Origin: Candidatus Bathyarchaeota archaeon
Lineage (GTDB): Archaea > Thermoproteota > Bathyarchaeia > Bathyarchaeales > Bathycorpusculaceae
Direction of reading: 5' to 3'
Assembly (NCBI GenBank): GCA_963775685.1
Contig: CAVZJV010000014.1
Location: 352,001-416,000, forward strand
DNA: 64,000 nucleotides
Shown here in pieces: positions 13,992 through 35,718 of this stretch. The notes beneath the pieces were generated by a model that was given only the letters and a program-made list of their open reading frames with translations, ran no database searches and was not told the origin of the DNA. Position numbers and translations under genes: made by a program. How positions within the stretch are numbered: the first letter of the stretch is position 1; each line of letters starts with the position of its first letter.

Positions 13992-15699
13992 CCGCTCTTC
14001 CCTCAGTGTCTTTGGTTTTTTTGCAAACATCCGAAATAACATGTAATATCGATGGCTGAGTGAAGATGCTGAAAACCCGAGTGTACTTAGACAATGCAGC
14101 TTCTCTTATTTCATGTACGCTTCCGCCGCCTCTTAAGTAGCCATCTATGAAGGCTTTGGTAACTACTTCAGGTTTAACGTTGCTGTAAAATGGTTGAAGA
14201 TAGTGTCCACTGTAATAAAGGAAGACAGATATATCCCAGGCTTTATCGCCGCCTTGCGTAGCCTGTTCAAAATCAATAAGAAAAATGGTGCCGTCCTGCT
14301 TAATTAGTACATTATCGGGTTTAGTATCGCCTAAGCAGATGTTGCTTAAGTGAACTTTTGCAAGTACTTCGCCAACTCTATTTATTGTAGAGACTACCTT
14401 TTTATTAGTAGCTTTGTCTGTTGAGGTTGCAAATGTTTTAATTGCTTCACTAAGATTTTCTCCCTCAATATACTCCATGAACACTATGCGTTCAGCGTTG
14501 CTTACATGCAAAATCTTAGGAACGTTAAACCCTTCGTTGCGCAAAAACTCATTAATCGCCCATTCCTTCGCCAGTCGTGCCTGACCTGAAACCGCAAATG
14601 ACCTCGCTCCAAAAGACCACAAAGTCAAAGGGAACCATTTAAGGCCAGACCAATCCTTAAAACGCTTAGCTAAAACTTTGGCTTCCCCCTCGTTGCCATG
14701 GGCATTGATTAGGTAAACGTCGTTTAGCATGCTACCGAGGTGTTCTACTTCAATGTTGTCATTCTTCCCCTTGGGAAGCATTCTTTTGGCAAACCCTTTG
14801 ATATCAATCTTATCGGCAAGCGAAACCATCCCTTCCGAGGTTGGAAAGAGAATAAATTTCTTAGGATCAACAAAACGGCAGTTAGGGTCAGGCTGCCTTA
14901 TCCAACTGATTTTTTGGCTTTTAAGAATGAGTTCGGTGTTTTGCGAAATTATGTTCATTAGTTGTGGGAAGACACCGAATAGTGATGTGAAAAGTCTTCG
15001 AGGCATATTTTTAGATAAGTTTACTATTTTTATTCGCGGGTCTTGATTTTGAGCTATGAATTTTCTTGTTATGACTATGTAATCTTTTGTTTTGATTATT
15101 TTTTCTTCAGCTTCAAGTTGTTTTAGGGCTTCCAGGTAAACGCTGAGTGCAAGATCTTCATCTTGCTGAAGACAACGGACCAGGTTTGCGATCTCATAGG
15201 CGATTAGAGGAAAAACTCGGATACGGTTAGAAAACACTTCATATAGGAAGTACTCTGGTTTAATTTGTATGCTTTGCGCAAGCTCAGGAAAATTCACTAC
15301 TAAATTCTCAAGCAATTCAAGAATTAGACGTTTCTTTAGGGCAACTTCTTTCTCATGCAAATAATCGTTGCCTTGAAGCGTTAGATAAGGAAAAATAAGC
15401 TTACTTGCAATAGCCTCACCCAGAAATCCCCTATCGATGTCACGCTCAAAAATCCACTGATTAACTGCCGTAACAAAAATAGTCTTGTTCTTGACTGTTT
15501 TTAAGTAACGCATTAGTCGAGGCTGAAAATCATGAACAACCAGCATTACTTCATAGATTGAGCGATCGTTTAGTTTTTTTACCGAATAGTTGTCCACCAA
15601 GGCGATGGCTGTGATTTTGGATGACCCGGCGACGTGTATGCAAAAATCAAGAATTTGGTTGGTTAACCCGAAAGTTTCACTGTTGTTTACCCGCTTCAA
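13984..15699 (-). CDS. Protein kinase-like (Bud32/RIO/Kdo-like) C-terminal domain fused to an uncharacterised N-terminal domain
   Basis: VLAKRF, MEYIEGENL, H...GDTKPDNV, IDFEQ, WDI motifs. Confidence 0.8.
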   Translation of the reverse strand: MKRVNNSETFGLTNQILDFCIHVAGSSKITAIALVDNYSVKKLNDRSIYEVMLVVHDFQPRLMRYLKTVKNKTIFVTAVNQWIFERDIDRGFLGEAIASKLIFPYLTLQGNDYLHEKEVALKKRLILELLENLVVNFPELAQSIQIKPEYFLYEVFSNRIRVFPLIAYEIANLVRCLQQDEDLALSVYLEALKQLEAEEKIIKTKDYIVITRKFIAQNQDPRIKIVNLSKNMPRRLFTSLFGVFPQLMNIISQNTELILKSQKISWIRQPDPNCRFVDPKKFILFPTSEGMVSLADKIDIKGFAKRMLPKGKNDNIEVEHLGSMLNDVYLINAHGNEGEAKVLAKRFKDWSGLKWFPLTLWSFGARSFAVSGQARLAKEWAINEFLRNEGFNVPKILHVSNAERIVFMEYIEGENLSEAIKTFATSTDKATNKKVVSTINRVGEVLAKVHLSNICLGDTKPDNVLIKQDGTIFLIDFEQATQGGDKAWDISVFLYYSGHYLQPFYSNVKPEVVTKAFIDGYLRGGGSVHEIREAALSKYTRVFSIFTQPSILHVISDVCKKTKDTEGRAVG

Positions 15700-15831
15700 T
15701 TAGTCACCCTGAGGATTAACCTACCAATTGCGCGCAGATGTATTTAAAACAGGTTTATGTACTGGCAAAAATGCCTGGGATTTCAAAGTTTCAAGGATAT
15801 GTTTCTAGCAAGCGATAAAAAAGTGCCAATT

Positions 15832-16236
15832 TTATGGGACGTGTATGGTTAAGCTGCCTCTGCTTTTGGAGTTTACCATGGTGACATTTGTTTGTGTTAT
15901 CTCCGGGGTTGTGGTTGCTATTTTCCTGCAGATCAAATTGAGGGAGTCTTCGGTAAAGTTGAGCATGTTTTGTCCGTCGTTTGTTAGGCTGTAGACTTTT
16001 CTTGGGCGTTCAAAATTCATGTTCCAATGACTGTTTACATAGCCTTTCTTTTCTAGGGCGCCTAGTAGTGGGTATATGGTGCTTGGTCCGAAGTATACCC
16101 CGAAGTTTTTGCGAATTTTGGTGATGACTTGGTAACCATGCATGGGCTCTTGCTGCAAAAACTGCAGGATTATCATGTCTAATAATCCTTTCATTAGTTT
16201 TGTTGATACTTCTTTTTGTGAGCTTGGTTTAAACAT
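15832..16236 (-). CDS. PadR family transcriptional regulator
   Basis: MHGYQVI...STIYPLL..LEKKG...RPRKVYSLT. Confidence 0.9.
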   Translation of the reverse strand: MFKPSSQKEVSTKLMKGLLDMIILQFLQQEPMHGYQVITKIRKNFGVYFGPSTIYPLLGALEKKGYVNSHWNMNFERPRKVYSLTNDGQNMLNFTEDSLNLICRKIATTTPEITQTNVTMVNSKSRGSLTIHVP

Positions 16237-16475
16237 TTTTTTCTCCTCGACTTGTATCCTTGTTGAACAGTTTTTCTGTTATACCTGTATACAATATGTC
16301 CATATTCGGACATATCTTGAGTACTTAGTATCCTTAAACCCTGATATAAACCCTCACACATACCCAAAGCATACTAAGACATACTACAGCATACAAACAT
16401 TCAAAAAAATTAACATAAACCTAATTAATCCAAACATCAACCCCATACACAAAACAAGCCCCACAAGGAAGAACC

Positions 16476-16793
16476 ATGTCTGAAACCTACAAAAAACAAA
16501 TTGTACAACACATAATCAGAAACTTACTAGACATCCAACTCCTACGCATCATCCAAGCTCAACCAACATGGGGCTATAAAATAAAAAAACAGGTAGAAGC
16601 AGATTTTAATGTGAAACTAAGACACGGCGCGCTCTACCCAACCCTGAACCGCCTTGAAGAGAACGGCTTTGTAGAAAGCAGCATACAGCAAAAAGATGGT
16701 CGTGCCAGAAAAGTATACACCGTAACTGAAAACGGTAAAATCTACCTGGAAACCTACTACAGCATCTTGAAAGGGCAGCTGGAAAATACATAA
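16476..16793 (+). CDS. PadR family transcriptional regulator
   Basis: WGYKI...GALYPTLNRLEENG...RARKVYTVTENG. Confidence 0.9.
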   Translation: MSETYKKQIVQHIIRNLLDIQLLRIIQAQPTWGYKIKKQVEADFNVKLRHGALYPTLNRLEENGFVESSIQQKDGRARKVYTVTENGKIYLETYYSILKGQLENT

Positions 16794-16934
16794 CAACCAG
16801 ACCAAGCGTTTTTGCATTTTTTTATTTTATGAACACTTTTGATACATACTTTTAATTACTATTTTTCGAAGGCTATGGACCTGTATGAAAAAGTTTTTAT
16901 CCTAATACCCGTGACAGGAACTCGAGGAAAACAC

Positions 16935-17576
16935 ATGATTTTAGAAACGAGCAAAACTTTAGGTGGCATTGGCGCAATATTAATGTTTATCGGCATTTTC
17001 CCATTCATAAGCTACTATGGCATAATAGAAATTGTAGGCGCAATACTTATCCTGTTTTCTCTGCGTGGCTTGGCTAATCACTTTCGACAAAGCGGCATTT
17101 TCACTAACGCCCTCTATGGAATCTTTGCTGGTATAATCGGCGCCGTCATCGCAGCAGTAGCAACCGTTGTAACAATTCTGACGTCACTAACTGATCTAAT
17201 AAAACAGATATATCCTGGTTGGAATGGTGACTGGTCTACAATTCAAGGCATGACTCCAAACACAGGCAACCTCGACTACTCCGCGATATATCCTCTTGTC
17301 GCTGGAATAATTTCAGTTTTGGTTATTGTTTGGATCTTTGCAATAATCGCAGCTTTCTTTGTTTGGCGCTCGCTAAAGCAGGTTTCAAATAAATCAAATA
17401 CTGGCTTGTTCGGAACAGTTGGATTATTGTTACTAGTTGGCGCAATTATCCCCTTAATTGGATTATTACTGATGTGGATAGCTGCCCTGCTCTTGGCAAT
17501 CGCTTTCTTTACTATGAAGACAACAGAACAGCCCATGGTAGGCGCAATGTCTCCTCCACCACCTACAGCAGTCTAA
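16935..17576 (+). CDS. DUF996-like membrane protein
   Basis: KTLGGIGAIL..., 'LFGTVGLLLLVGA', 'ILLAIAFF'-like end, Pro-rich tail. Confidence 0.75.
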   Translation: MILETSKTLGGIGAILMFIGIFPFISYYGIIEIVGAILILFSLRGLANHFRQSGIFTNALYGIFAGIIGAVIAAVATVVTILTSLTDLIKQIYPGWNGDWSTIQGMTPNTGNLDYSAIYPLVAGIISVLVIVWIFAIIAAFFVWRSLKQVSNKSNTGLFGTVGLLLLVGAIIPLIGLLLMWIAALLLAIAFFTMKTTEQPMVGAMSPPPPTAV

Positions 17577-17650
17577 AAATAAATCATCTCCCCACTTTTT
17601 TTCTTTTAATATTTCAAAGCAGACATCATTTTGGCGGACGAATCTCTTTT

Positions 17651-18126
17651 ATGAAATTACCTCAGGACCCTAGCAAATTTAGTTTTGGCGCCACTTCCTC
17701 CACTGTCACTAGTTCGGAATAATTTTTGGACTGTTATCCTCTGGCAACCCTCAAGCCAGCGTAATTGGCTCTTTGCTTGTGATAGCTGTCGCAGACAACA
17801 TCGCAGACTCTCTTGGGATTCATATTTACAGAGAGACAACGTCAACAAAAAAAGAAAACACAAGAATGTTCACCATTAGCAACTTTTTAACCCGGTTCAG
17901 CATCACCCTTACCTTTGTTGGGTTGTTTGCTTTCTTGCCTGTTGATTACGCTGCAACATTTTGTGTAGTAATTGGGTTTGGAATCTTGGTTTTCCTAAGC
18001 TACCTCATCGGTGTTCAACGCAGAACCAGTACGATTAGAGAAATCCTCATCCATCTTGGTATAGCTATTCCTGTAATCGTGATAAGCCACTTTTTGGGCC
18101 AACTAATATTTAGCATATTTGGATAA
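17651..18126 (+). pseudogene. VIT1/CCC1-like membrane protein, interrupted near the N-terminus
   Basis: MKLPQDPSKFSFGATS then stop/shift, continuing IAVADNIADSLGIH. Confidence 0.6.
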
Positions 18127-18224
18127 ACTCGAAAATGCTGAGTAAGTTTTTGTTTGTGGAAAAAAGTTGGTCCTAACAACAATTAATAGTTAGGATCCCA
18201 TTTTAAATTAACAGAGATAAAAGT

Positions 18225-18653
18225 ATGGCACTTGATTTTCAAGGAAATATAGTTTCTATTATTCAAGTCATCGCATTAATCCTACTTATAATAGGAGTTT
18301 ATCCTTATAGAATAAGGACTAAAAACAGAAACCTCATAATGCATGGCTTTTTAAGCATTTTAGCAGTTGGACTTAACCTTGCCACAGTAATTTATGTAAT
18401 GATTCCTGTTTTTAATAAAAACATCACCTTTATCAGTGGATTGTCAATTTTGCAGTCAACGATTGTTTGGCTCCATGTTGCTTCTGGAATAACAGCAATC
18501 GTTTTGGGTTTTGTTATCATTGTTTCATGGATAACTCATCCTTTAGGGGAACTCGGATGCTCCAGAACGTGGAGACTAATGATACCTACATTCTTGATTT
18601 GGACCCTAGCATTGATCTTAGGTTTAATCATACATATTTATACCATAGTTTAA
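18225..18653 (+). CDS. Four-TM membrane protein with His residues (DUF420/cytochrome b-like)
   Basis: 142 aa; HG..., WLH..G motifs. Confidence 0.65.
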   Translation: MALDFQGNIVSIIQVIALILLIIGVYPYRIRTKNRNLIMHGFLSILAVGLNLATVIYVMIPVFNKNITFISGLSILQSTIVWLHVASGITAIVLGFVIIVSWITHPLGELGCSRTWRLMIPTFLIWTLALILGLIIHIYTIV

Positions 18654-18899: not shown

Positions 18900-19691
18900 A
18901 TGAAAAAAACATTAACAATATTCCCCATCTTATTGCTTGTTCTATCTTCTTCTTTATTTGCAATAGCTACTGCTTCTTGCAATGAATCCCGTGCAGCTAT
19001 AACTTTGTCTCCTCCACAAGGATTTGCAATGACTATGATAACAGGCACAAGATTCGACGAATCTAAAACTATAACAATCGCATATGACGGCGCTGTTCAG
19101 TCAACAATACCTGCTGCGGTCAAAACTGATAATAAAGGTTCTTTCACTGCCATAATTTCGATTCCCGATGAACTTGCAGTCGGCCTTCACAGAATAACCG
19201 CTACCGAATCACATGGAGACTCAGCCTCAACAACCTTCACAGTTGTTGACATGACAGGACCACAAGGAATTCAAGGCGTCACCGGACAGAATGGCAAAGA
19301 TGGCATTAACGGAATTAATGGTTTGGCGGGTCAGGACTTTAATGTGACAGGACACTTGTTTATTTATAATGGCACCGACGGCTTAAATGGTAAAGATGGA
19401 ATCAATGGAACAGATGGAATTGACGGTTACAACGGAATAGATGGAATCAATGGAGCCAATGGAATTAACGGAATCAATGGAAAGAATGGCACTAATGGAG
19501 TAAATGGAGCCGACGGCGCTCAGGGTCCACCAGGCTCTCAAGGTTTGCAAGGCGCAACTGAACAAGTAATCGTCACTAAACCACTCACAACGGGCGGAAT
19601 AGACTTTCAAAGCTTCATAGCTATCATCGTTATTGCACTAATTGCTTTCGCTACCGCAATGATTACCCTTTATCGCAAAAGTAACAGCTAA
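18900..19691 (+). CDS. Secreted/anchored collagen-like protein with Ig-like N-domain
   Basis: Signal peptide, beta-rich domain, Gly-X-Y repeats (GING, GKDG, GPPG), C-terminal TM plus basic tail. Confidence 0.8.
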   Translation: MKKTLTIFPILLLVLSSSLFAIATASCNESRAAITLSPPQGFAMTMITGTRFDESKTITIAYDGAVQSTIPAAVKTDNKGSFTAIISIPDELAVGLHRITATESHGDSASTTFTVVDMTGPQGIQGVTGQNGKDGINGINGLAGQDFNVTGHLFIYNGTDGLNGKDGINGTDGIDGYNGIDGINGANGINGINGKNGTNGVNGADGAQGPPGSQGLQGATEQVIVTKPLTTGGIDFQSFIAIIVIALIAFATAMITLYRKSNS

Positions 19692-19820: not shown

Positions 19821-19870
19821 AGGTTGGGCAGATGTTCTTTCAGCGAGGATTAACCGTCCCAGCCTTAGGG
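19821..19870 (+). repeat. Degenerate attL-like site
   Basis: Shares TGGG, TCAGCG (19840-19845), CCGTCCCAG (19854-19862) and TAGGG, in order, with 25803-25859; also folds (AGGTTGGG/CCCAGCCT). Confidence 0.6.
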
Positions 19871-20058
19871 CAAAGTAATTTTTTAACGGCTTTAATCCTG
19901 TAGTCTTATTGTAGCTTTCTAGTTATATGCTTTTGGAGTTCTGCTTTCTCGCAACAAGAAAAACTATTAGTATCCGTTCTTGAACTTGTATCCATGTTGA
20001 GAGTTAGGGGTTTTAAATAACTTTTTATATCCTTTTCCCAAGTTAAATTAGAGGATTT

Positions 20059-20562
20059 TTGTTGAATTTCAAAGAATCTGAGTTCTTGTTGGCACTCTTA
20101 ATCGTTGTAGTAGCGGGGTCGCTCATGGTTGCTGCATACCTGCATTTGATAAACGTGAGTTTTTTTGTAGGTCCTCTACGTTTTAGCCATTGGCTTTCGA
20201 TAATTGGCACAAGCTACATTGCAATCGATACTCCTGCATTCGTGGTTTTAAAGCGTTATTATTCTGAAAAGTATACTGGTCTTCTTAAATACCACATTTT
20301 CGGAAACCTTCTATTCTTTTCGTTAATTTCGATTCATTTTGCAGCTCAACTTGGCAGACCAATAGCATTCTACCCAGCGTTGGGAACAGGCTTAATCTTA
20401 TACATTGCATTAACTTTAGAAGTGACAACAGGTTTCGCAGAAAGATTCCCTTTAGTAAAACAAATAGACCATAAAACTAACCAATTTATTCACGCGGCCT
20501 TAGTTATGGTGTTTTTCTTGGTGATAATTTTTCATGTTCTTACAGCTTTAGGTATTCTTTGA
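20059..20562 (+). CDS. Membrane protein with several His residues (cytochrome b-like)
   Basis: 167 aa, about 5 TM, His in SHW, YHI, IHF, IHA, FHV. Confidence 0.65.
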   Translation: MLNFKESEFLLALLIVVVAGSLMVAAYLHLINVSFFVGPLRFSHWLSIIGTSYIAIDTPAFVVLKRYYSEKYTGLLKYHIFGNLLFFSLISIHFAAQLGRPIAFYPALGTGLILYIALTLEVTTGFAERFPLVKQIDHKTNQFIHAALVMVFFLVIIFHVLTALGIL

Positions 20563-20870
20563 AATATGGTCCTTTAAAACTTAGATTTTCCAATGCATGT
20601 AACAACAATTTTTACTTGGTCGTTTGCTTATTTCTATTTTTGAAGGTCTCACGAAATTGTGCAAAAACAGAGTTCTTAGGTTCGAGCGAGGGTGCCCTTT
20701 TGGGAGTGTACTCGCTATCCGAAGAATTTTCACTTAAAGTCCCTTATTTTCCTCAAGTTGGGAAAAGGGGACTTAGGAATTTGGTCGGCGGCAACCCTTG
20801 TGGTTGCTCGCTTCCCACTTTCTCTCTACGCTTCGGAGCTCTGCCAATCTCTAACTGGTTTAGTTTAAAC

Positions 20871-21459
20871 TTATTCATCGAGATTCTTTTTCCATTCTTT
20901 TAACATTGCTTTTGATTCTGGAAATAACTTCAGTGCTTCTTTGACGTTTCTTTTTCTATCCTTGGGGTCTATTTTCTTCATTTCTTCCAAAATTATCATA
21001 AATAGATAGGGCATTGCTACATCAGCGCCGTCTTTTTGAACAACGGGCAAGAATTTGCCAACGTCTTTAAGGTACGTTGCGAAGTGCTCTTTTCCCCAAA
21101 CATCATAGAGTTTTCTAAAGGACTTGCAAAATTCAACTCTCGATTTGTAAGCATCTAAAACTTCAAGGATGTTGTCCGATGAATGTGTCAATGTATAAAA
21201 AACGCCTGATTCAGTACAAGAATAAATTTTTATTTTTACTTTCTTTTGTGAAATTCCTTCTTTGGATTCAACAAAACCTATCTTTTCTAGGCATGTCTAC
21301 GGCTTTAGAGATAGAACCGTATTGGTCGGATGGGTGTTTTATGCCTTGCTGGATTGCTTGTTTATGATTGTCGGGGTTTTGGGCTAAGTGGAATAGGACT
21401 TTTTCTTGTAAGCTTCCAAGTTCTTTGAAGATTATGTCTTATGAATTCTTGTAGGTCAT
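20871..21459 (-). pseudogene. Degraded winged-helix regulator of the element
   Basis: Joining frames upstream of ORF 20871-21191 gives ...QYGSISKAVD.LEKIGFVESKEGISQKKVKIKIYSCTESGVFY (wHTH-like). Has stops and shifts; divergent from rep. Confidence 0.55.
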
Positions 21460-21473
21460 TGCAATTACCATAC

Positions 21474-21515
21474 TGTGTAAGTATAGTGTGTAAGTGACAT
21501 ACTATATTTACTCAC
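21474..21515. promoter_or_regulatory. Candidate operator between the regulator and rep
   Basis: TGTGTAAGT at 21474 and 21487 (13-bp period) plus an imperfect inverted copy ending TTACTCACA. Confidence 0.4.
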
Positions 21516-21563
21516 AATAGAGCATTATTAGTCCTTGCTTATTAGATTTTCAAGTGAATAAGC

Positions 21564-22571
21564 ATGATAATAACACAAGAAACAGTAAACATTCAAGAAA
21601 AAGAACTTACTTTCAAACAAACGAACCCAGAAAACTGGGCAAATTATGGAGATTATCAACTTGCAGGGCACGGAATACAGACAAGCCCTAAATGCGGAAC
21701 GTTCAACAAATACATGGGGTGCCTAAACTATAAGGCACATAATCAAACTCGTTTCTTTAATGAGAGTTTAGCGAAGGATTCTGTTTTTGTTAAGCCGATT
21801 TATCACTCATGTGATAAACCCTGTTGCCCCGTATGCTTCAAATAAGGCTGGGCTGTTCGCGAAGCCTATCGCATGGAAGAACGCCTAAAAATAGCTTCTA
21901 ACCGCTTTGGGCTTCCAGTAGAACACATAGTGGCTAGCATCAGAACCGAAGATTACGGTTTAAGCCTCGATTCGCTTCGCAAAAAAGCAGTCCGACTCAT
22001 GGCTAATCGAGGAATAATCGGTGGCTCCATAATCTTTCACGGCTTCCGCTATGCGAACCGAAAAGAAGCAAAAATAAAAAGCGTTCCCTTTGGCTGGCGG
22101 TGGAATCCACACTTTCACATACTCGGTTTTGTTGGTGGCGAAGGTTATGGTCTTTGCCGAAAATGCAAAGGTGGTGACTGTTATGCCTGCAAAGGCGTTG
22201 AAGGAGTCACAAGACGTGAAAACAAGAAAGACGGTTGGGTTGTCAAGGTCTTAGATAAGCGAAAAACTGTTGGCGGAACTTGTTGGTATCAGTTAAATCA
22301 CTGCTCGATTCGCAGAGGTTCTAAAAAATCTCATGCTACAACTTGGTTTGGCGCTTGTTCCTATCGAAAGCTGGAGATAATTAACGGTGATGACGTTGGA
22401 ATTAAACATAAGTGTTCTATCTGCAATTCCGAGTTAGTTCATGTCCGATACTTAGGCGGTTCAAAACTATTGCTTACTCGAAAAGGCGAAGTTTTAAGCA
22501 TGTTTGCTGATGATGGGACACCCCTTTGGGAAGTTGTGCATGAAGGAACTTGTCATGGGGGCTGTGGATAG
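21564..22571 (+). pseudogene. HUH rolling-circle replication initiator (IS91-like), one in-frame TAA at 21843
   Basis: The two ORFs are in the same frame (335 codons). Zn motif CG...C...HSCDKPCCPVC, motif 1 EHIVAS, HUH WNPHFHILG, Tyr motif WYQLNH, C-terminal CxxC. Confidence 0.8.
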
Positions 22572-22573
22572 CT

Positions 22574-22885
22574 ATGATTCGTCAACAAAGAAGAAGAATT
22601 GAGCGACAATGGAGCAAAATCAAGGTAGGCGATATCTGCACCAACTTTATTGAGCGTAATAGTTTGTTTTCTCTTCCTCATGTTGTCGCTTTCCAAGCGG
22701 TCAAAGTCTCTGACGAATTGGTTTGCGTGTATAATGTTGGTCTCTTTGACTTCAAAAAAGATAGAGGTCATGGCGAATACGTTACCATATGCATGTTCTT
22801 AAATGGTTTTTTCAGAAGCATAGATTCCATACAGATTGCCTTCATCCCCGAAGGTGACTTGTGGGAGAATGAAGAAATCGATTAA
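22574..22885 (+). CDS. Hypothetical protein downstream of rep
   Basis: ATG 2 nt after the rep stop; 103 aa. Confidence 0.55.
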   Translation: MIRQQRRRIERQWSKIKVGDICTNFIERNSLFSLPHVVAFQAVKVSDELVCVYNVGLFDFKKDRGHGEYVTICMFLNGFFRSIDSIQIAFIPEGDLWENEEID

Positions 22886-23059
22886 TAGCTCAGCGCATCG
22901 TTTGGTTCTTGCGGAACATTCGGCAAGGGTGACGCGGAGCGACCCGCGAAGCGGGAGCGTAGAGAGCACGCAAGCGCAAGTGAGTGAGCGAATAATACGG
23001 TCAATCATCGAGAATTGTAAACCATGGCAAATGATGTAGTCTTCCGTCTATTTCCACTG

Positions 23060-24742
23060 CTAATTCTTTGGTGGTGTCATCTGCATTTGGATTCCAATCT
23101 TTAGAGACCAAGTCTTAAGTTCTGAATAAGTGATTAGTGGTGCTCCTTCAAAATTGTCTATGTTAACTAGGGTATTTGAAACCACTAATGGAAAAAGCAA
23201 TAATTTATCTGACAGATTGATTCCCAAAGCATCGCAATTGTTTTGAACATAAGAAGTAAATTTCTCAAAATTTTCGCTTATCCATTTTGCTCTATAATAC
23301 TGCTCAACAACAAAATTCTTAAATTTGTTTCCTTGTTTTGATAATGAAGATTTGAATTTTGACTCCTTGCATTCAATAATTAAAAGAGCATTCTCTTTCA
23401 AAGCAATTATGTCTAAATCTGTTCTGTTTTTTTCCTTACCCCATAATATATGAGCGATGTCTTTTGGAATCATAGGCTCAAAAATCTCAACGCTTTCGGG
23501 AAGAACCAGTAAACCCATTTCTTCTAATAGTTTTCTCGTTGCGTTTTCGAATTTCTTTCCTTTCAAATCATTTTCATAAATTGTATTGAAGCATTTATCG
23601 AGAGTAAATAAAGTTGAATATGTTAACCTTTCGAAAGTTGAAAAAATCGTATCATTAATAACGAGCATCCCATGAAAAACACTACTTCTATTTAAGTTGG
23701 ACAAAATATTGACGACTTTTTCTACTTCGATAATTTTGTGCTTCTTGCATATTGCACCTTTGCTCAATTCACTTAATTTCCATATTCCAAGTGTGTTGTC
23801 ATTCGGATAGCATTCAAAAATGAATTCATTAACGATGTCGAGAAATACTTTTAACTGAATTCCATGAATATCCTCAAATATTTTAGAAAAACCTGGTAGA
23901 CTACCATAAGCGAGGTATATTTCGTTGAATTCTAGTTTAAGATTGACAATATTTTTTTTGCCCTTTCCTTCCTGAATTGTTCTTATTGTTTCTTGAACTT
24001 GATTAGGCAGATTAGAGTTCCAAAAAGTCAGGTGAGTATAACTCTCGATTAATCTGTGAGATAATCCCCTTTTCTTATACGCTGTTTCAAAAGTGAAGCC
24101 TTCAGGATATTTAATGAAAGTTCCTTGTTCATTAAAATTAACTTCAGTTCCTATTGGAGCCAAATAAATCATTGTTTCCAAAAGACCTTTTTTATACATT
24201 AACTGTCTTAGCGCAAGGATTTTATCAAGGGTCAGAACGATTTTTTTATCGATATTACTGTCCAATATAATGAACATTGCGCCTGGATAACGACCCAAGA
24301 ACAGTCTTTCTTGAATTCGGATGATGTACTTATTGCCAATACTCTTCTCTTTCTTCAATTTGTCAACGAAATCAATAATGTCATTTTTATAATCTTGTTC
24401 GATTGACACTCCAATCGAAATTCCATTTTTTGTGTTCTTAGTTGTGTAATCAAGAAATCCCTTTTCTAATATGTTTTCGAACATGGTTTCTAAGAACTGA
24501 AACCATTCCATTAAGAAGCTAACTATACCCAGATTTCTTGGTTCGATATTGTTCTCTTTTTCCATTTTGGTTCTTTGATAGTCTATGTTAAGGGCACCGA
24601 TGGCATCCTCTAAACACAACATTGTAGGAATCGTTCTTAAGATATTGAACTTTGAATAGCTTTTCTCTATGTTTTCGTTGATTTGTATAAGTTCCTTTTT
24701 TGCTTGGGCTTTGTCGTTTGTTTCAAACATAAGTAACCTCAT
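23060..24742 (-). CDS. Cargo protein with C-terminal PD-(D/E)XK / NERD-like nuclease domain
   Basis: KGKKFE...TDLDIIALKENALLIIECKES...EQ motif; AT-rich; intact 560 aa. Confidence 0.7.
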   Translation of the reverse strand: MRLLMFETNDKAQAKKELIQINENIEKSYSKFNILRTIPTMLCLEDAIGALNIDYQRTKMEKENNIEPRNLGIVSFLMEWFQFLETMFENILEKGFLDYTTKNTKNGISIGVSIEQDYKNDIIDFVDKLKKEKSIGNKYIIRIQERLFLGRYPGAMFIILDSNIDKKIVLTLDKILALRQLMYKKGLLETMIYLAPIGTEVNFNEQGTFIKYPEGFTFETAYKKRGLSHRLIESYTHLTFWNSNLPNQVQETIRTIQEGKGKKNIVNLKLEFNEIYLAYGSLPGFSKIFEDIHGIQLKVFLDIVNEFIFECYPNDNTLGIWKLSELSKGAICKKHKIIEVEKVVNILSNLNRSSVFHGMLVINDTIFSTFERLTYSTLFTLDKCFNTIYENDLKGKKFENATRKLLEEMGLLVLPESVEIFEPMIPKDIAHILWGKEKNRTDLDIIALKENALLIIECKESKFKSSLSKQGNKFKNFVVEQYYRAKWISENFEKFTSYVQNNCDALGINLSDKLLLFPLVVSNTLVNIDNFEGAPLITYSELKTWSLKIGIQMQMTPPKN

Positions 24743-24835
24743 CGTTGGTTCAGATTATTGATATTAAATTATGTCTTACTAAGATTTAAGATAAAATGGA
24801 ATCGTTTTAGCAGATTATTAATTACATAGAAAGTA

Positions 24836-25783
24836 TTATGCTGCTTTCTTGAAGTATGTTATTCCATCTACTTGGCAGACTAATTCACAATCTTCTTTGA
24901 TAGCTTGCTCAATCTCTGTTTGGTTGTGGCATATTACGGGTATCCAAGTTATGTTTTTGTCGTCAAATAGGCTGATGTATTTCTCGGTGCTTCGGCTGTC
25001 TTTGTGTCCTAAAATTTGTTTTACCCAAAGGAAGTTGTGTCTGGATAATTTGTATTCTTTGCTGGCTTTGAAGCGTCTAAAATCGTATAGCTGAATTTGC
25101 TTCAGTTCTGGCATATTGTAATCTTGGGCTATTCTGTTTCGAGTGTGTCGATAATCATTTGATAGATTATCGCTTGAGCTATTGTATAAGTGGCTGTTTG
25201 CGCTGAAGTTTTTCTTTTGGATGAAGATTTTTAGAAGTTCTAAGCTTTTTACTCGAAGTTTTCCTTCTCTTCCGATTGTGTGTTTAGCTCCTGTGATTGA
25301 TACTAATCCTGTGGTTAGGTCAATGTCTTTGATTGTTAGCCATGTTAATTCTATTGGTCTTTGTCCTAAGTCTTTGCTTATGGATAGTTTAGTTGCCATT
25401 TCCATTCTGCAATGGTTGATTAAAAAATCTAGATGCTCTTCTTTTGGTGCTTTTCGTTTCTTATCATATCTTTGGTAAAAAGGTTGATTCCATGTTCAGC
25501 TTAACGATTTAATTATTATTGCGTATGCTTCGATTAGGTTCTCTTTGTGTCCGTTTGAGCATGTTTTTCTTGCTATGTATAATTTTACTTCTTCAGGGTT
25601 TGCTGTGTTGCAATTCCGTTCTAAATGCCTAAGGAGCTTGGCTGTTTTCTTAATTGTTGATTGCTCATAAGCGTTTTTCATCATCCAAAGCATAACGTTT
25701 GGAATATTTATTTTTCCTATGTCTTGGGGCTGTTCGTTTATATTTTGGGTTTGTGTTTGTTGTTTCTTCATTTTTTTCCTCAT
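24836..25783 (-). pseudogene. Tyrosine recombinase/integrase, one in-frame TGA at 25496-25498
   Basis: Read-through KSLS*TWNQPFYQRY...; catalytic set LGQRPIEL (R), GAKH (K), LYDFRR (YxxR), LGHK (H), TEKYI (Y). Confidence 0.88.
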
Positions 25784-25823
25784 CTCCACGAAAGCCCTTA
25801 AGAGACTGGGACGGTGCATTATC

Positions 25824-25892
25824 AGCGGGGGATGATGTCGCCGTCCCAGTCTGATAGGGAAGATGAAGAACGAAATATTGACAGACCCCACT
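25824..25892 (+). ncRNA. Box C/D 2'-O-methylation guide sRNA; D' guide predicted for 23S rRNA G2251 (E. coli numbering)
   Basis: Box C ATGATGT 25832-38, guide CGCCGTCCCAGT, D' CTGA 25851-54, C' ATGAAGA 25863-69, second guide, D CAGA 25882-85, terminal stem GGGG/CCCC. Confidence 0.8.
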
Positions 25893-26000
25893 TTCATTTG
25901 CCATCAATTTTTTTGCGGCTGGGTGTTCCGCTAAGAGAACAAGGTGTTCTTTAGGGAGAGTAATATCTCAGAGCTGTCAATATCCTCATAGGTGACTTGA

Positions 26001-27900
26001 ATGAGCTTTCGCAGAAAAAGGGTGGGAACATTGAAGAAAAGAGAAATCCTTAAAGCACTTATACTCACAGTAATTTTGATTTCGGCTGTTTGGATGTGTA
26101 ACCTTCAGACAAGCCAGGCTTCTAAGACTATAGTTGTTCCACAAGATTATCCAACAATAGGTCAAGCAATCATACACGCCTCATCAAGCGACGTTGTATC
26201 GGTGAAGCCGGGGGTTTACTATGAAAACCTTCAAATTAACAAGTCCTTAACGCTTATGGGTGAAGACAGTGAAAACACCCTTATTATCGGCGAAGGTGGC
26301 TCCGATGAACCTGCTGTCCTTACGTTGGCAGCGGCAAACATCAGAGTTTCAGGATTCACCATCCAAAGCGTCAATAGCACAAATCCCTCTCAAAACGCCA
26401 TAGGCATAAACCTCCAGGGCGATGGCTGCACAATCCACGACAACATCATAAAGAGCAACTATTTCGGAATCTTTTGCGCCGTCCAATCATCTACAACCAT
26501 AACCAATAACATAATCACCCTGAGCATTAAAGACGGGATACGATTCTATGCTGGCTCCCAGAACAAAATCTCCGACAACAGCATCATCTCAAATGCGGTT
26601 TCAGGTGTTGCTTTAGGCGGCTACTCAAACACGGTTGAGGGAAACAACTTTCAGGGCAATACCCGCGGGTTAGGTTTGGGCGCATCCAACTCGGTCGTGT
26701 TCCATAATACGATGGTGTCTAATTCTGAGTCAGGTATTTTCCTCTCAGGATCAAAAAATGTAATCGCTTGGCAATGAGGTTGATTCCAACAAGTATGGAG
26801 TATACATTACGACTCAGGGAGCTTCTCCAAGCGCAAACGAAATTTATCAAAATAACTTGTTGAATAATTTCTATAACGCTTTTGGCAACTCTTCTTATCT
26901 TGTTGAGAGTTGGGACAGCGGGTCTAAGTCAGGCGGAAACTATTGGAGCGACTACCAAACAAAGTACCCCGCCGCAGTTGAAGATGGGAATTCAGGAATA
27001 GAAAATACCGCCTACATCATTAACTCAAACAACATGGACAAATATCCATTAACTGCGCCCTTCAACATCGCCAATTTTGACAAGGCGCCAATCGCAATCC
27101 CTCCAAGTCGGGCAAAGCCCAACAGCGTTGTTGCTTTATGGTCATTTGATAATGTTGACCTTGATCTTGTGGCTCCAGATTTAATAGGCAATAACCCAGC
27201 AGTTTTAGGGTCAGTTACAGGTGTTTACAACTACACTCCAGCGCGGGTTCAAGGCAAGTTTGGCGAAGCCTTAAGCTTCAACGGGAACACCTATGCTGCA
27301 GTGCAGCCTTCGCCCAGCCTCGAAACCCCAAACGACATAACCGTTGATGTTTGGGTAAATGTGCCCGAAATCAAAGCTGACGTGCCATACAACAACATTC
27401 TCATCGAAGCCGTTAGGTCTACCGCTGCTCTTCCAACGCGAACTCTTGGAGTAGCAATTAACGGAGAAACACCCAGTAATGAGAGTTCGCCACCAATAGG
27501 TGTCCTCCGCGCTTACGTAATGACGTCAAACGAGTTCAACGAAATAGACAGCAAAGAGCCCCTTCCATTTAACACGTGGGTTCACGTGGTTTTCGTCCGA
27601 AGCACAACAACTGGAATGCACCTCTATGTTAACGGAAAAGAACAAGCCGTAACAGTTGCCGCTGGAACATCCAACCCCACAGGCCCCATACAGAAACCAA
27701 CCGACATCTACATCGGACACGACTCAATAATCGAAATCGATCAACTCCAAATCAGCAACACTGCTCAGCAACCGTCTCAGCCGCTTTGGATGCAATGGTG
27801 GCTTTGGGCCGCGATAATATTTACCAGTTTGGCAGGAACAGGGTTGATGCTTTATTTCAAGAAACCGAAAAAATGGCAAGAACGAGTGCCCCAAGCATAG
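26001..27900 (+). CDS. NosD-like beta-helix + LamG domain surface protein (frameshift near 26770)
   Basis: VVPQDYPTIGQAI, beta-helix repeats, GGNYWSDY, LamG (WSFD, GKFGEALSFNG, WVHV), C-terminal TM. Confidence 0.8.
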
Positions 27901-28103
27901 AAAAACCTTTACTTTTTTACCCCACATTTTTTGTTTTATATATTTGGAGCGGCGCCAGCTCTGAAAGGTCGATAGGTTCCAAATTTAGAGTTTCCCAAAT
28001 GCAAAATCATTTTTAACACCAAAGAACCAAGCGAAAAGTGTCTTATTATATTTATTACTCCTCAATATAACATAACATAGCATTCACTGGTTGCATCATA
28101 GGC

Positions 28104-28361
28104 ATGGGAAAAAACCGGAAAAGCGCTGTTCAAATACGATTCGAAATCTTGGAGTATCTATTTTTCAACTCAAAAAACCAGCTGAGAACAATAATTTGGC
28201 GCAAATCCACAAACGTTTCTTACGATGACTTTCTTAAGCATCTGGCTTTTCTGAAGGAAAAACAATTAGTGAAAGAAACCCCTGAAGGATACTCCATGCT
28301 TACTGAGCAAGGAAGAGCGCTATACATTGAACTTCGCAAGTCCCTCCCCTCCATCCTGTAA
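28104..28361 (+). CDS. Winged-helix transcriptional regulator
   Basis: RKSAVQI..EIL...NVSY...HLAFL...LTEQG; 85 aa. Confidence 0.75.
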   Translation: MGKNRKSAVQIRFEILEYLFFNSKNQLRTIIWRKSTNVSYDDFLKHLAFLKEKQLVKETPEGYSMLTEQGRALYIELRKSLPSIL

Positions 28362-28371
28362 GCTGCCAAAC

Positions 28372-28386
28372 TTCATCTATGGTGCA
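28372..28386. promoter_or_regulatory. Candidate operator TTCATCTATGGTGCA (copy 1)
   Basis: Exact 15-bp repeat of 28794-28808; intergenic, pseudo-palindromic. Confidence 0.6.
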
Positions 28387-28429
28387 TCAAGTATAAAACC
28401 AAAAAACACTCAAATAATGAGGAAGAACA

Positions 28430-28792
28430 ATGACTCAAGAACCCGATGAAAACAAACAGTACCCAGTAAAATCCCTTCATGACTTTCTATTCGAACTCGA
28501 CCGAGAATGGACAAAATTCCGAAACGGCACCCTAATCGGCCTTGTATCTTCGGGTATCCTGTTTCTGCTAGTTGTTTGGCTTATTCTACGCGTCAGACAT
28601 TTGGGTTTGGGTTTACTGGATTTTGTTTTACTGATTTTCGCAGGTGCCTTTTTAGGTTACAGCATCTACGCGATGTACTCACAGTATCGATTCTTTAACA
28701 GGTGGGAACGGCGAGTAGGCTTACTTTTACACATGGAAGAACGAATTTTAACTGAAAAACTAGACGAAACCAAAGCTCCCAAAGTTACTTAG
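28430..28792 (+). CDS. Two-TM membrane protein
   Basis: 120 aa, GAGG RBS. Confidence 0.7.
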   Translation: MTQEPDENKQYPVKSLHDFLFELDREWTKFRNGTLIGLVSSGILFLLVVWLILRVRHLGLGLLDFVLLIFAGAFLGYSIYAMYSQYRFFNRWERRVGLLLHMEERILTEKLDETKAPKVT

Positions 28793-28793
28793 G

Positions 28794-28808
28794 TTCATCT
28801 ATGGTGCA
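28794..28808. promoter_or_regulatory. Candidate operator TTCATCTATGGTGCA (copy 2)
   Basis: Exact repeat of 28372-28386, upstream of the next gene. Confidence 0.6.
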
Positions 28809-28883
28809 CATCAAAAGTGCGGCTTTCTTTTTAAAGAGCACACCAAAGAAATCATAGATGAAGAAAAACTGAGGTGATATATA

Positions 28884-29388
28884 ATGAATAAACTACACAG
28901 TAAAACCAAAATCCTCATCATATCACTCGTTGCAACGGCATTAATCTTGGCAATAGCGGTTCCTTATGTAAGTGCTCAAACTCTCCGCTAACCCGATCGA
29001 CAACACAAAAACCCTAACCGCCAAAGGATACGCATATCAAACCATAGATAGCCAGACCATCAAAAAATATCCTGCAAGCTTTTCCCTCACGCTAGCACCA
29101 ACAGGCACTGACAGATCGGTTAAGCTATTCGATGTTACGGGCGGAACAGTAATGGTAAACGGCGTCTCATACATCGTTACAAACGGAAAAGGCGGCGTAT
29201 TGATCGAAAAACATTCGGTTCTGTTGCAGGCCCAGGGAACAAGCCCTGATGGGCAAACCCTGACATTCAAATTGGCTGGTCGATACTTCTGGGTGGGCGC
29301 AAACAGCTATGTCGTTCGCATCAGTGCTAAACTGCAAACAGATGACGAAAATTACACTTTACTTATGCGTGCTACAATACGCCGATAA
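28884..29388 (+). CDS. Secreted beta-rich hypothetical protein (frameshift after the signal peptide)
   Basis: GAGGTGA RBS; MNKLHSKTKILIISLVATALILAIAVPYVSA signal, then shift into ORF 28972-29388. Confidence 0.65.
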
Positions 29389-29718
29389 TTCATTTATCTA
29401 AAAAGCCTCATTTTCTATTCTTTTTTGGTTCTTTAAAATTGTGAAAATAAAAGTGATCTTTAAGAAAAATGTTTCTCAGGCAACTATTTTTTGCCTTTGC
29501 CCTGGTGTTTAGCTGGAAGTGAAACCTGTTTTCTCTCTTTTCGTTTCTGCTCTTTTTCACGAATCATTTGCTTGTGCTTTTCTAATCCTTCAGTTTTCTT
29601 TGCTTTCTTAGACAATATCTTCAACCTTAGCCAGCAATAGAAAACATTGATACTCAAAAACATTTTCCTTCGATACATGGTTGTCGTAATATTTAATAGC
29701 AAAATTGTTCAAGCTAAA

Positions 29719-29889
29719 GTGAGGATATGGAAAACGCCTAAAGTTGAAATCGTTTGCCCGAAATGTAGTTCATCAGCGGTTGAGCGGCGCAATAATCAGG
29801 AGTGCCATTGCACTAAATGTGGGTCAATTTTTTATTTTGTTACTCCGCAATGTGGTTCTCAAACTGACTTGGAAAGATACAACCTGTAA
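29719..29889 (+). CDS. Small zinc-ribbon protein
   Basis: CPKC...CTKC motif; start uncertain. Confidence 0.5.
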   Translation: MRIWKTPKVEIVCPKCSSSAVERRNNQECHCTKCGSIFYFVTPQCGSQTDLERYNL

Positions 29890-29950
29890 GGCAGTGAGCT
29901 TTTTTAAGTGAGGTTTAGCTGGATTTTTGTTTTTTGACCATTAACTTTAT

Positions 29951-29983
29951 ATGAACAAAGTATTCATATGAATTATAATTCAT
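29951..29983. promoter_or_regulatory. Tandem ArsR/SmtB-type operator
   Basis: Two adjacent inverted repeats, ATGAA-n7-TTCAT and ATGAA-n6-TTCAT, just upstream of an ArsR gene; resembles SmtB/CzrA boxes. Confidence 0.65.
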
Positions 29984-30008
29984 GCTATCGAAAGGGTGGA
30001 TAACACAA

Positions 30009-30336
30009 ATGAAAAAAGGGCTAACAAAAATCTGCTACCGCTTCTTCATCAAACCTAGCAAACCCCACTAGACTCGCCGCCATCGAACAACTAATGAACA
30101 AATCTATGAGCGTAAACGATCTCGCCACAGCGCTGGGTCAAGAACAAAGCATGATATCCCACAACCTCAAACCCCTCCTCGATTGCAACCTCATATCCAT
30201 CAAAAAACAAGGCAAAAAACACATCTACACCGCTAACCAAGAAACACTCAACCCAATCTTTGAAGCCATCCAAACCCACGCACAAAAATTCTGCCCCACA
30301 GGCGGAAAATGCACTAAAAGGAGAAGATTAACATGA
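30009..30336 (+). CDS. ArsR/SmtB family regulator (frameshifted 5' part)
   Basis: CYRFF..LANPTRLAAI..SVNDLA...QSMISHNLK.L...GK..IY. Confidence 0.8.
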
Positions 30337-30977
30337 AAAGAAAAATCGTAAACATAAACGAAGACCTATGTAACGGATGCGGAAACTGCATCCCCAAATG
30401 CGCAGAAGGCGCCCTCCAAATCATAAACGGAAAAGCAAAAATTATTAAGGAAACCTACTGCGATGGCCTAGGCGCTTGCTTAGGGCAGTGTCCTCAAGGG
30501 GCGATTACGCTAACTGAACGTGAAGCCCCTGCTTTCAGCGAGGCCGAAGTGCATGAGCATCTCAAAACCAAAACAGCCACGCCAGCATCAACTACTCAAA
30601 TCAACCACACACCCCAAAAGCCGCAGTGGCCAGTAAAACTAAACCTTGTCCCCGTGAAAGCACCGTTCTTCGAAAACGCCGAACTACTTTTCGCTGCTGA
30701 CTGCGCCCCTGTTGCGCTCAAAAACTTCCATGACCTACTGAAAGGTAAACGCGTAATCATCGGTTGCCCCAAATTCGACGATGCAAGAGCTTACGCTCAA
30801 AAACTAACCGAAATCTTCCAGCAAAACAACATCGCCTCAATATCCGTTGTCCACATGGAAGTTCCCTGTTGCACAGGATTAAAGTGGGCGGTAAACAAAG
30901 CGCTCGAAGACTCGGGAAAACAAATACCAGTTAAAGAATGCGAGGTCAAAATCGGAGGTGAAGTAGTTGAGCTCTAA
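30333..30977 (+). CDS. 4Fe-4S dicluster protein with C-terminal Cys domain
   Basis: CNGCGNCIPKCAEGA, CDGLGACLGQCP, QWPVKL, AADC, GCPKFD, MEVPCC. Confidence 0.88.
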   Translation: MKRKIVNINEDLCNGCGNCIPKCAEGALQIINGKAKIIKETYCDGLGACLGQCPQGAITLTEREAPAFSEAEVHEHLKTKTATPASTTQINHTPQKPQWPVKLNLVPVKAPFFENAELLFAADCAPVALKNFHDLLKGKRVIIGCPKFDDARAYAQKLTEIFQQNNIASISVVHMEVPCCTGLKWAVNKALEDSGKQIPVKECEVKIGGEVVEL

Positions 30978-31221
30978 AGACAAACAAATACAAAAAAACC
31001 CTGAAACCTGCCCCGGACTACGTGACTTACTTCAGCCCAAACCCGCCTACATCAAATGCCACGTTTGCGGAGGAGACCTAGAAATTTGGACCGACGAGGA
31101 CAAAACAACCTGTCCCGAATGCGGAGCCGAATGGAAACGCCCTGACAAGTCAGCCACATGCCTAGAATACTGCCAATTCGCCGACAAATGCAGAGGCATA
31201 ATAGAAACACGTAAGCATTGA
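30967..31221 (+). CDS. Small Cys-rich metal-binding protein
   Basis: CPG..CHVCG..EIWTDE..CPECG..CLEYC..ADKC. Confidence 0.75.
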   Translation: MSSKDKQIQKNPETCPGLRDLLQPKPAYIKCHVCGGDLEIWTDEDKTTCPECGAEWKRPDKSATCLEYCQFADKCRGIIETRKH

Positions 31222-33174: not shown

Positions 33175-33249
33175 TGGGCCGGACCGGATTCGGACCGGCG
33201 ACCTTCTGCACGTCAAGCAGATGTCCTAACCAGGCTAGACGACCGGCCC
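33175..33249 (-). tRNA. tRNA-Val(GAC)
   Basis: Cloverleaf GGGCCGG...CCGGCCC-A; anticodon arm TCTGC-TTGACGT-GCAGA; CCA not encoded. Confidence 0.95.
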
Positions 33250-35633: not shown

Positions 35634-35718
35634 GCCGAGGTGGCAGAGTGGTTAACGCGCGGGCCTTGAGAGCCCGTGGAACATCCGTTCCGCATGGGTT
35701 CGAATCCCATCCTCGGCG
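35634..35718 (+). tRNA. tRNA-Ser(TGA)
   Basis: GCCGAGG/CCTCGGC acceptor stem, G discriminator, CGGGC-CTTGAGA-GCCCG anticodon arm, long variable arm, GGTTCGAATCC. Confidence 0.93.

Follow-up and report, generated by a model that had tools for sequence, protein, structure and literature searches.

The 64,000-nucleotide (nt) stretch of Bathyarchaeota DNA analyzed here, which we call the window, corresponds to C14:352001-416000 of a 3.06 Mb assembly that is 96.9% complete. Plain coordinates are positions in the window, and labels beginning with G and L denote genomes (G000 being this assembly) and loci, respectively. On the plus strand, at 25824-25892, lies what we identify from its boxes and its conservation as a genuine archaeal box C/D small RNA (sRNA) gene. 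Read 5' to 3', it runs AGCGGGGG-AUGAUGU-CGCCGUCCCAGU-CUGA-UAGGGAAG-AUGAAGA-ACGAAAUAUUGA-CAGA-CCCCACU. The four boxes, the two 12-nt guides and the terminal stem that an earlier note on this DNA had proposed were all confirmed in the sequence, except that the D' box, which the note had written tCTGA and counted as a departure from consensus, is plain canonical CUGA. A tyrosine integrase gene and the predicted integrated element that it borders lie immediately upstream. The features of the locus are collected in Table 1.

Table 1. Features at and around the box C/D sRNA gene, in window coordinates
Feature	Position	Strand	Sequence or basis
Decayed left attachment site (attL)	19840..19884	+	leader-like TCAGCGAGGATTAA, CCGTCCCAG (19854-19862), element left end CCTTAGGGCAAAGTAATTTTTT (19863-19884)
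Predicted integrated element, ~6 kb, between attL and the sRNA (right attachment site, attR)	19863..25850		flank synteny, Pfam, PADLOC
Tyrosine integrase gene	24836..25771	-	PF00589; divergent from the sRNA, begins about 60 nt upstream of the C box
Predicted promoter region	25796..25823		TATA-like TTAAGAGA at 25798-25805 and inverted copy of the sRNA 5' half
5' end and 5' strand of terminal stem	25824..25831	+	AGCGGGGG; sequence and alignment
C box	25832..25838	+	AUGAUGU; consensus RUGAUGA, 6/7 match
D' guide, 12 nt	25839..25850	+	CGCCGUCCCAGU; core N+2..N+11 = 25849..25840
D' box	25851..25854	+	CUGA; canonical
C' box	25863..25869	+	AUGAAGA; sequence, conserved
D guide, 12 nt	25870..25881	+	ACGAAAUAUUGA; orphan in this copy
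D box	25882..25885	+	CAGA; consensus CUGA, 3/4 match
3' strand of terminal stem (CCCC) and 3' end	25886..25892	+	sequence and alignment
Run of 7 T, about 20 nt past the stem	25908..25914	+	sequence, inference

The terminal stem consists of four G-C pairs (G25827-G25830 with C25886-C25889) and two outer pairs, G25825-C25891 and A25824-U25892. G25831, A25832 and U25833 would form the 3-nt bulge of a kink-turn (K-turn), and the GA dinucleotides of the C box and the D box that a K-turn needs are both there. The D' and C' boxes are separated by 8 nt (UAGGGAAG). Consensus is broken at two bases, the last of the C box and the second of the D box, and these face possible Watson-Crick partners, U25838-A25881 and U25836-A25883, the latter where the consensus has U-U. 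That these departures still allow pairing, as previously claimed, is supported by 53 aligned copies, in which U25836-A25883 appears as U-A in 51 and U25838-A25881 keeps its partner in 40.

A scan of the 3.06 Mb genome for the four-box pattern with normal spacing returned the locus at 25824-25892 as its sole match, and the reversed genome returned none. Since the match is unique, is not equalled in the reversed genome and is conserved in relatives, we consider the locus to be more than chance. A looser scan for C and D boxes combined with rRNA complementarity gave 36 matches versus 9 in the control and was too noisy for use. One explanation that would make the boxes fortuitous starts from a minus-strand open reading frame (ORF) of 133 amino acids (aa) at 25496-25897, which spans the whole feature and of which the region could be the N-terminal coding part. 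We regard this as extremely improbable. Homology places the integrase start at 25771, the point from which the intact 315-aa relatives can be aligned, and in those relatives the gene begins roughly 60 nt upstream of the C box. In addition, conservation of the sRNA extends to loci lacking such an ORF, and the four-box pattern occurs only once in the genome. The ORF itself was discarded as an artefact, namely the N-terminal piece of the integrase, extended spuriously at its 5' end.

Another likely box C/D sRNA was noticed outside the window, at C14:646039-646109 (+), with C box AUGAUGA, D box CAGA and stem GCCGG/CGGC. Its D guide is a perfect 11-nt complement to the organism's own 23S rRNA around 2030-2040, and it had no Rfam match at E<=0.1. 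The occurrence of CAGA in this second likely sRNA as well suggests that CAGA is a usual D-box form in this lineage.

When 131 nt around the locus were used as a BLAST query, all 36 same-genus genomes gave a match at E<=10, though a weak one in two cases, and several other families of the order matched as well. The sequence CGCCGTCCCAG was identical in 29 of 29 same-genus BLAST copies. In the alignment of 29 same-genus orthologs the C, D', C' and D boxes and the stem were constant, while the D guide differed in both sequence and length. A covariance model, built from 53 diverse copies without forcing the guide, matched 67 of 151 class genomes at E<=0.01, including 50 of the 95 of good quality. 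Of the 26 distant class-level copies fetched from these finds, 25 retained GUCCCAG. Further 5' in the guide, the distant copies show either a change from C to U, which keeps the pairing with G, or a one-base bulge. The conservation of boxes and guide in relatives and across Bathyarchaeia, on which the earlier note had made its prediction depend, was therefore found.

An exact-pattern scan of one genome per species detected at least 124 loci; this pattern forced GCCGTCCCAG and is thus uninformative on guide conservation. Among the matches listed, the archaeal ones were labelled Bathyarchaeia or Bathyarchaeota, with a few 'uncultured archaeon' and one 'Nitrososphaerota', and about 20 were chance matches within a bacterial gene. 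We then tabulated 102 distinct full-length copies, drawn partly from the 124 loci found with that guide-forcing pattern. The C box was ATGATGT in 93, ATGATGA in 7 and ATGATGC in 2; the D' box was CTGA in 77, CCGA in 16, CGGA in 7 and CAGA in 2; the C' box was ATGAAGA in 63, ATGAGGA in 21 and ATGACGA in 18; and the D box was CAGA in 100 of the 102. The D' guide was 12 nt long in all copies, and the D spacer was 10-15 nt with a mode of 12. Both in these copies and in the same-genus alignment, N+1 (U or A) and N+12 (C, A, U or G) varied while N+2..N+11 was invariant, a pattern that fits a 10-bp guide-substrate duplex. Crystal structures show that archaeal C/D ribonucleoproteins limit this duplex to 10 bp. 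In the 53 aligned copies, 94.8% of the cells of the terminal stem were paired, with two pairs of the GGGG/CCCC stem kept in 53/53 and one in 52/53.

Targets of the D' guide were searched in the organism's own 23S, 16S and 5S rRNA and in 41 tRNAs (7.9 kb). The best site was 2367-2377 of the 23S rRNA (GCUGGGGCGGC), which forms 11 contiguous pairs with the guide, nine Watson-Crick and two G-U. The guide core pairs with 2368-2377 (CUGGGGCGGC) through 10 bp at N+2..N+11, nine of them Watson-Crick and one, at N+7 (U25844), a G-U wobble. The 23S rRNA is encoded by a single gene in the assembly (C14:2234059-2237091), and its positions 2367-2378 read GCUGGGGCGGCA, complementary to the guide. Complementarity, with G-U, to the P-loop had been claimed earlier, and it is borne out on the 23S rRNA of the organism itself, which carries the required sequence. 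The partner of N+5 (C25846) is G2371, which aligns with G2251 of Escherichia coli (MG1655 rrlH); the motif GGGGCGG starts at 2250 in the E. coli sequence and at 2370 here. The N+5 rule thus leads to the G2251 equivalent, in agreement with the earlier assignment. We also observed that the rRNA genes are unlinked (23S at C14:2234059, 16S at C14:2431328 and C13:15805, 5S at C14:829055), with two 16S copies in the assembly versus one 23S.

The D guide of this copy, ACGAAAUAUUGA, found no 10-bp site in the organism's own rRNA or tRNA, so that the second guide remains without an assigned target, as it was before. In relatives the picture is richer. The D guide is NCUCAUGACGG(A/G) or a close variant in 40 of the 102 copies, and the relatives' guide CUCAUGACGG pairs with 2713-2722 of the own 23S rRNA (CCGUCGUGAG) through 10 bp at N+2..N+11, with mismatches at N+1 and N+12 flanking this helix 93 duplex. 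Its N+5 nucleotide falls on U2716, the equivalent of E. coli U2593, in helix 93 beside A2602. The N+7 nucleotide is U in the organism's own order and mostly C in distant orders, and both pair with G2718. This pairing argues that the ancestral RNA was a double guide with two targets in the peptidyl-transferase region, separated by 345 nt. In many species of the genus, including the one studied here, the D guide has drifted to an A/U-rich sequence, and we interpret the D guide of the present copy as a decayed remnant of the ancestral helix 93 guide. No second full copy of the sRNA was found in the assembly. A perfect 10-nt inverted repeat joins 25875-25884, within the orphan D guide and D box, to 25974-25983 in the leader of a beta-helix/NosD-like gene that starts at 26001. 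Pairing of the orphan guide with that leader was considered and dropped, as the repeat is not conserved in relatives.

The TATA-like box ends about 23-26 nt before the G-run of the 5' stem; relatives have TTTATAG, TTTATTTG or ATATTAG instead. Because such a box lies about 26 nt upstream, transcription would start at the G-run, and the run of T residues downstream is a possible archaeal terminator. In a search for RNA evidence, small shares of the query were present in 20 runs. The metatranscriptome contigs at the locus are short, and starts and ends cannot be read from them. The region 25796-25823 is an inverted copy of 25831-25859, and the predicted fold of 25796-25892 as RNA has an energy of -42.9 kcal/mol (z -6.4); if this region were transcribed, the guide would be locked in a hairpin. 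A guide complement of at least 7 nt is present at a fixed offset upstream in 21 of the 29 same-genus copies and is absent from copies that keep the helix 93 guide. The position of the complement, after the TATA box but before the inferred start, leads us to favor a role at the DNA level, for example as an integrase arm. Against the integrase-arm reading, relatives do not conserve the inner part of the palindrome. In one decayed copy, on C5, the invariant guide U is replaced by C, and the resulting CCCC then pairs with the 5' G-run. Our guess is that the invariant U opposite G2253 avoids such a misfold.

Genes for the proteins of the methylation complex are present in the assembly. The gene for L7Ae is located at C14:1739722-1739991, and those for fibrillarin (518613-519290) and Nop5 (519589-520269) are adjacent at C14:518613-520269; the matches of L7Ae, Nop5 and fibrillarin to PF01248, PF01798 and PF01269, respectively, are all above the Pfam cut-offs. 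In the mechanism we propose, L7Ae would bind the terminal K-turn (C box AUGAUGU with D box CAGA) and the internal K-loop (C' box AUGAAGA with D' box CUGA), after which Nop5 and fibrillarin would assemble on the sRNA. The D' guide would form its 10-bp duplex (N+2..N+11, G-U at N+7) with the 23S P-loop, and fibrillarin would methylate the 2'-OH of G2371. We give a probability of about 0.8 to the prediction that this is a functional box C/D sRNA aimed at the G2251 equivalent, and a somewhat lower one to methylation really taking place there.

A number of observations weigh against this prediction. The C box and the D box are each one base off consensus. No Rfam C/D family, for example RF01275 (sR22) or RF00095 (snoPyro_CD), matches the sRNA at gathering score, and the matches at E<=10 are all far below it. 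Stem covariation is not significant, as 28 of 500 shuffles score at least as high; with almost every pair invariant, testing the K-turn and stem pairs for covariation is uninformative in either direction. Contigs from two RNA-labelled and two doubtful runs cover the locus, and some of them carry the relatives' promoter sequence and may therefore be DNA. Although C would pair better, none of the copies seen departs from the central G-U (U25844 opposite E. coli G2253). When the 10-nt core was shuffled with its composition preserved, 1450 of 20,000 sequences (7%) also reached a 10-bp site with at most one G-U in the same 7.9-kb set of rRNA and tRNA targets. As the guide-target match taken alone is weak, the case for the target rests on conservation. 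Finally, a perfect complement to the guide sits in the promoter region of the gene itself.

The last three of these points would also suit a genuine C/D sRNA whose D' guide does not direct G2251 methylation and acts as an rRNA-folding chaperone or on another target that has A in place of the P-loop G (perfect complement ACUGGGACGG). An invariant U at N+7, where the G of the P-loop favors C, would be explained in this way, shuffled guides reach an equally good rRNA site in 7% of cases, and perfect 10-12 nt complements occur at three genomic sites besides the one in the promoter region. The three other sites, however, are outside any Rfam-recognised RNA, and the copy in the promoter region is situated upstream of the inferred start. 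Within the rRNA and tRNA set the P-loop ranks first, and it has the exact N+2..N+11 register. The sister guide in relatives has the same register and the same wobble position at N+7, and it addresses a peptidyl-transferase-centre site 345 nt away. G-U pairs are, moreover, tolerated in guide duplexes. We therefore consider a different function or target unlikely and retain G2251 as the predicted one.

The 5' half of the sRNA gene probably has another role as well, as the attachment (att) core of integrative elements, and the locus would be flanked by variable cargo for that reason. At the loci of eight relatives, a truncated copy was found 0.9-7 kb upstream of the full sRNA, in direct orientation and with variable cargo between the two; at the locus of one relative, three copies stood in tandem. 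The truncated copy is made up of leader, G-run, C box and D' guide, followed by CCTTAGGGCAAAGTAATTTTT. In nine pairs of partial and full copies the identical block was GGGG(G)ATGATGTCGCCGTCCCAG, with a length of 21-23 nt in five pairs, 12-18 nt in three and 29 nt in one. It ended exactly after CCCAG in seven of the nine pairs; one block stopped earlier because of a substitution and one ran 7 nt further. The junction at which CCCAG meets CCTTAGGGCAAAG is common to the attL of the window and the partial copies of relatives. A 315-aa tyrosine integrase is encoded in the repeat-bounded segment of L057 and of L058, divergently and with its start about 60 nt from the full sRNA, and L056 has an integrase fragment beside the full copy. 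Integrase-homologous DNA was present directly upstream of the sRNA at 10 of 29 same-genus loci and at two loci of other genera. The truncated-junction motif was also detected in 88 metagenome stretches, of which 80 were fetched. A full copy followed within 2 kb downstream in 13 of the 80, and in 8 an integrase was directly upstream of a partial-type junction, which fits attP or a tandem array.

The element in the window conforms to this arrangement, and we regard it, from the state of its integrase and attL, as decaying. The flanks (left, 14060-18640; right, 28003-31209) are syntenic with those of relatives, while the cargo between the repeats differs. In genome G012 (L008) the site appears empty: the sRNA is followed directly by the right flank and has the left flank 0.6 kb upstream, and no integrase or partial copy was found in the 3 kb examined; as this is a different species, the junctions are not comparable base by base. 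The integrase of the window is 71% identical to, and collinear with, the intact 315-aa integrase of a relative and is interrupted by a single in-frame TGA at codon 92 (25496-25498, minus strand), where relatives have Leu. A split integrase of the SSV type was considered and rejected, given the collinearity with intact relatives and a gene start that lies outside the att core. Most cargo ORFs have no family. The 560-aa protein encoded at 23060-24742 (-) shows weak matches to NERD and Card1-like, CARF-associated PD-(D/E)xK nucleases (Pfam E 5e-4; PADLOC NERD E 1.4e-6) and may be a defence gene that the element carries. A 263-aa ORF at 18900-19691 (+), immediately to the left of the decayed attL, contains collagen triple-helix repeats (PF01391, E 9e-14). 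In genome G029, the element at the corresponding sRNA locus has a DDE transposase (PF01609; L055 6145-7608, +) amid its cargo and an integrase fragmented into small ORFs. A further two truncated 5' copies followed by CCTTAGGGCAAAG, at C5:10009-10055 (-) and C14:856515-856593 (+), are far from any full copy and are probably relics of other integrations or of rearrangements.

According to the model that we propose, elements with a tyrosine integrase would insert just upstream of the sRNA and leave a truncated 5' copy at the far end, with the invariant 22-23 nt of 5' stem, C box and D' guide acting as the core repeat for integration. The geometry of the repeats implies that the element would bring the promoter side and the 5' core, and that the 3' half of the sRNA would be the host's. 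Some findings are less favorable to an attachment core here. The attL of the window is worn down to 9 identical bases (CCGTCCCAG) and the element-end motif. A search of IMG/VR revealed no free or circular element: one scan gave 0 matches and another gave 78, none of them sRNA-like. A classical recombinase core with a 7-bp overlap at AGCGGGG was also considered, and the inner parts of the palindrome proved not to be conserved in relatives.

The same repeats could be taken to mean that the conserved sequence is purely a recombination site in the DNA, an att core with inverted arms from which no RNA is expressed. A 22-23 nt core repeated as attL and attR, a long palindrome centred on the G-run and an integrase next door would all be expected of such a site. 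It would not account for the 3' half (C' box, CAGA and CCCC), which, though outside the repeated core, shows class-wide conservation and complementarity to the 5' stem, nor for the 12-nt spacers. All boxes and two guides that match the 23S rRNA persist in copies that have no upstream palindrome, and attL copies, which are without the 3' half, decay. A site acting only as DNA is thus very unlikely, and we hold to an sRNA gene whose 5' half doubles as the att core.

A more speculative extension, to which we give less than even odds, is that the sRNA gene is a standing landing pad. The attP of the elements would carry promoter, 5' stem, C box and guide, and the inverted guide copy would serve as a second integrase-binding arm, so that the guide would be fixed by both the ribosome target and the recombinase. 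Each integration would rebuild the sRNA with 5' sequence supplied by the element and leave a dead half-copy behind. The invariant U opposite G2253 would then be held by two readers, the ribosome target and the recombinase.

We also compared the sRNA and its locus with known systems. At gathering level, Rfam recognised in the window only two tRNAs, at 33175-33249 (-) and 35634-35718 (+). The best C/D match of the sRNA was RF01275, sR22 of Pyrococcus, with 20.8 bits versus a gathering threshold of 40. The consensus D guide of sR22, CCGUUCCAGU before CUGA, is one base apart from CCGUCCCAGU before CUGA in our sRNA, and sR22 may address the same P-loop sequence. However, this similar guide is the D guide in sR22 and the D' guide here, so that the two RNAs are not collinear, and we believe that the sRNA is a new family among archaeal box C/D sRNAs. 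The target as such is not new for archaea, because C/D-guided methylation of the G2251 equivalent has already been predicted in three of seven archaea (Dennis et al. 2015, PMC4644070). The sRNAs described there share with ours the machinery, the N+5 rule and the P-loop nucleotide of helix 80, for which the equivalent position there is G2520. The seven species do not include Bathyarchaeia, and our sRNA differs from that set in its box pair AUGAUGU/CAGA, which is not consensus, and in the fixed G-U at N+7.

In eukaryotes the same nucleotide, which is universally conserved, carries 2'-O-methylguanosine (Gm), as Arabidopsis 25S Gm2620, yeast Gm2619 and human Gm4196, and the modification is RNA-guided; in bacteria the G2251 methyl is made by the stand-alone SPOUT enzyme RlmB (PMC11542601). 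The same source equates Gm1950 of Haloarcula marismortui with Gm2251, which we find doubtful, as the offset in its own table is 35 (U2587 = U2552). For the attachment site, the closest parallels are the integrative elements with tyrosine recombinases that target tRNA genes in archaea (PMC8371274) and integration into a small RNA gene of bacteria, ffs, which encodes 4.5S RNA (PMC12540744). As in those elements, the integrase is at the edge, the direct repeat is part of a conserved RNA gene, tandem arrays occur, and the intact gene is rebuilt at one end with a truncated copy at the other. In contrast to them, the target here would be a box C/D sRNA gene, the repeated part is the 5' half, and the element would bring the promoter side. 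The words 'sRNA', 'snoRNA' and 'non-coding RNA' are absent from the review of archaeal recombinases (PMC8371274), as is 'integrase' from the Pyrobaculum sRNA paper. A literature search that covered few subscription journals turned up no account of an archaeal C/D sRNA gene that serves as an att site, and no paper on C/D sRNAs of Bathyarchaeia was met in the literature searched.

For the Bathyarchaeia, a large uncultured group of archaea, these results predict a class-wide RNA-guided route to the G2251 methyl. The 2'-O-methyl group at G2251 touches the CCA end of tRNA in the P site. The covariance model and the more than 100 copies can be used for annotation, and the paired guides, each with 10 bp at N+2..N+11, a wobble position at N+7 and mismatches at N+1 and N+12, provide a natural data set for the rules of guide-target pairing. 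What is new here is the 22-23 nt of 5' stem, C box and D' guide as the probable attachment core of integrative elements. An att core in the 5' half of the sRNA would extend integration into conserved RNA genes from tRNA genes to a C/D sRNA.

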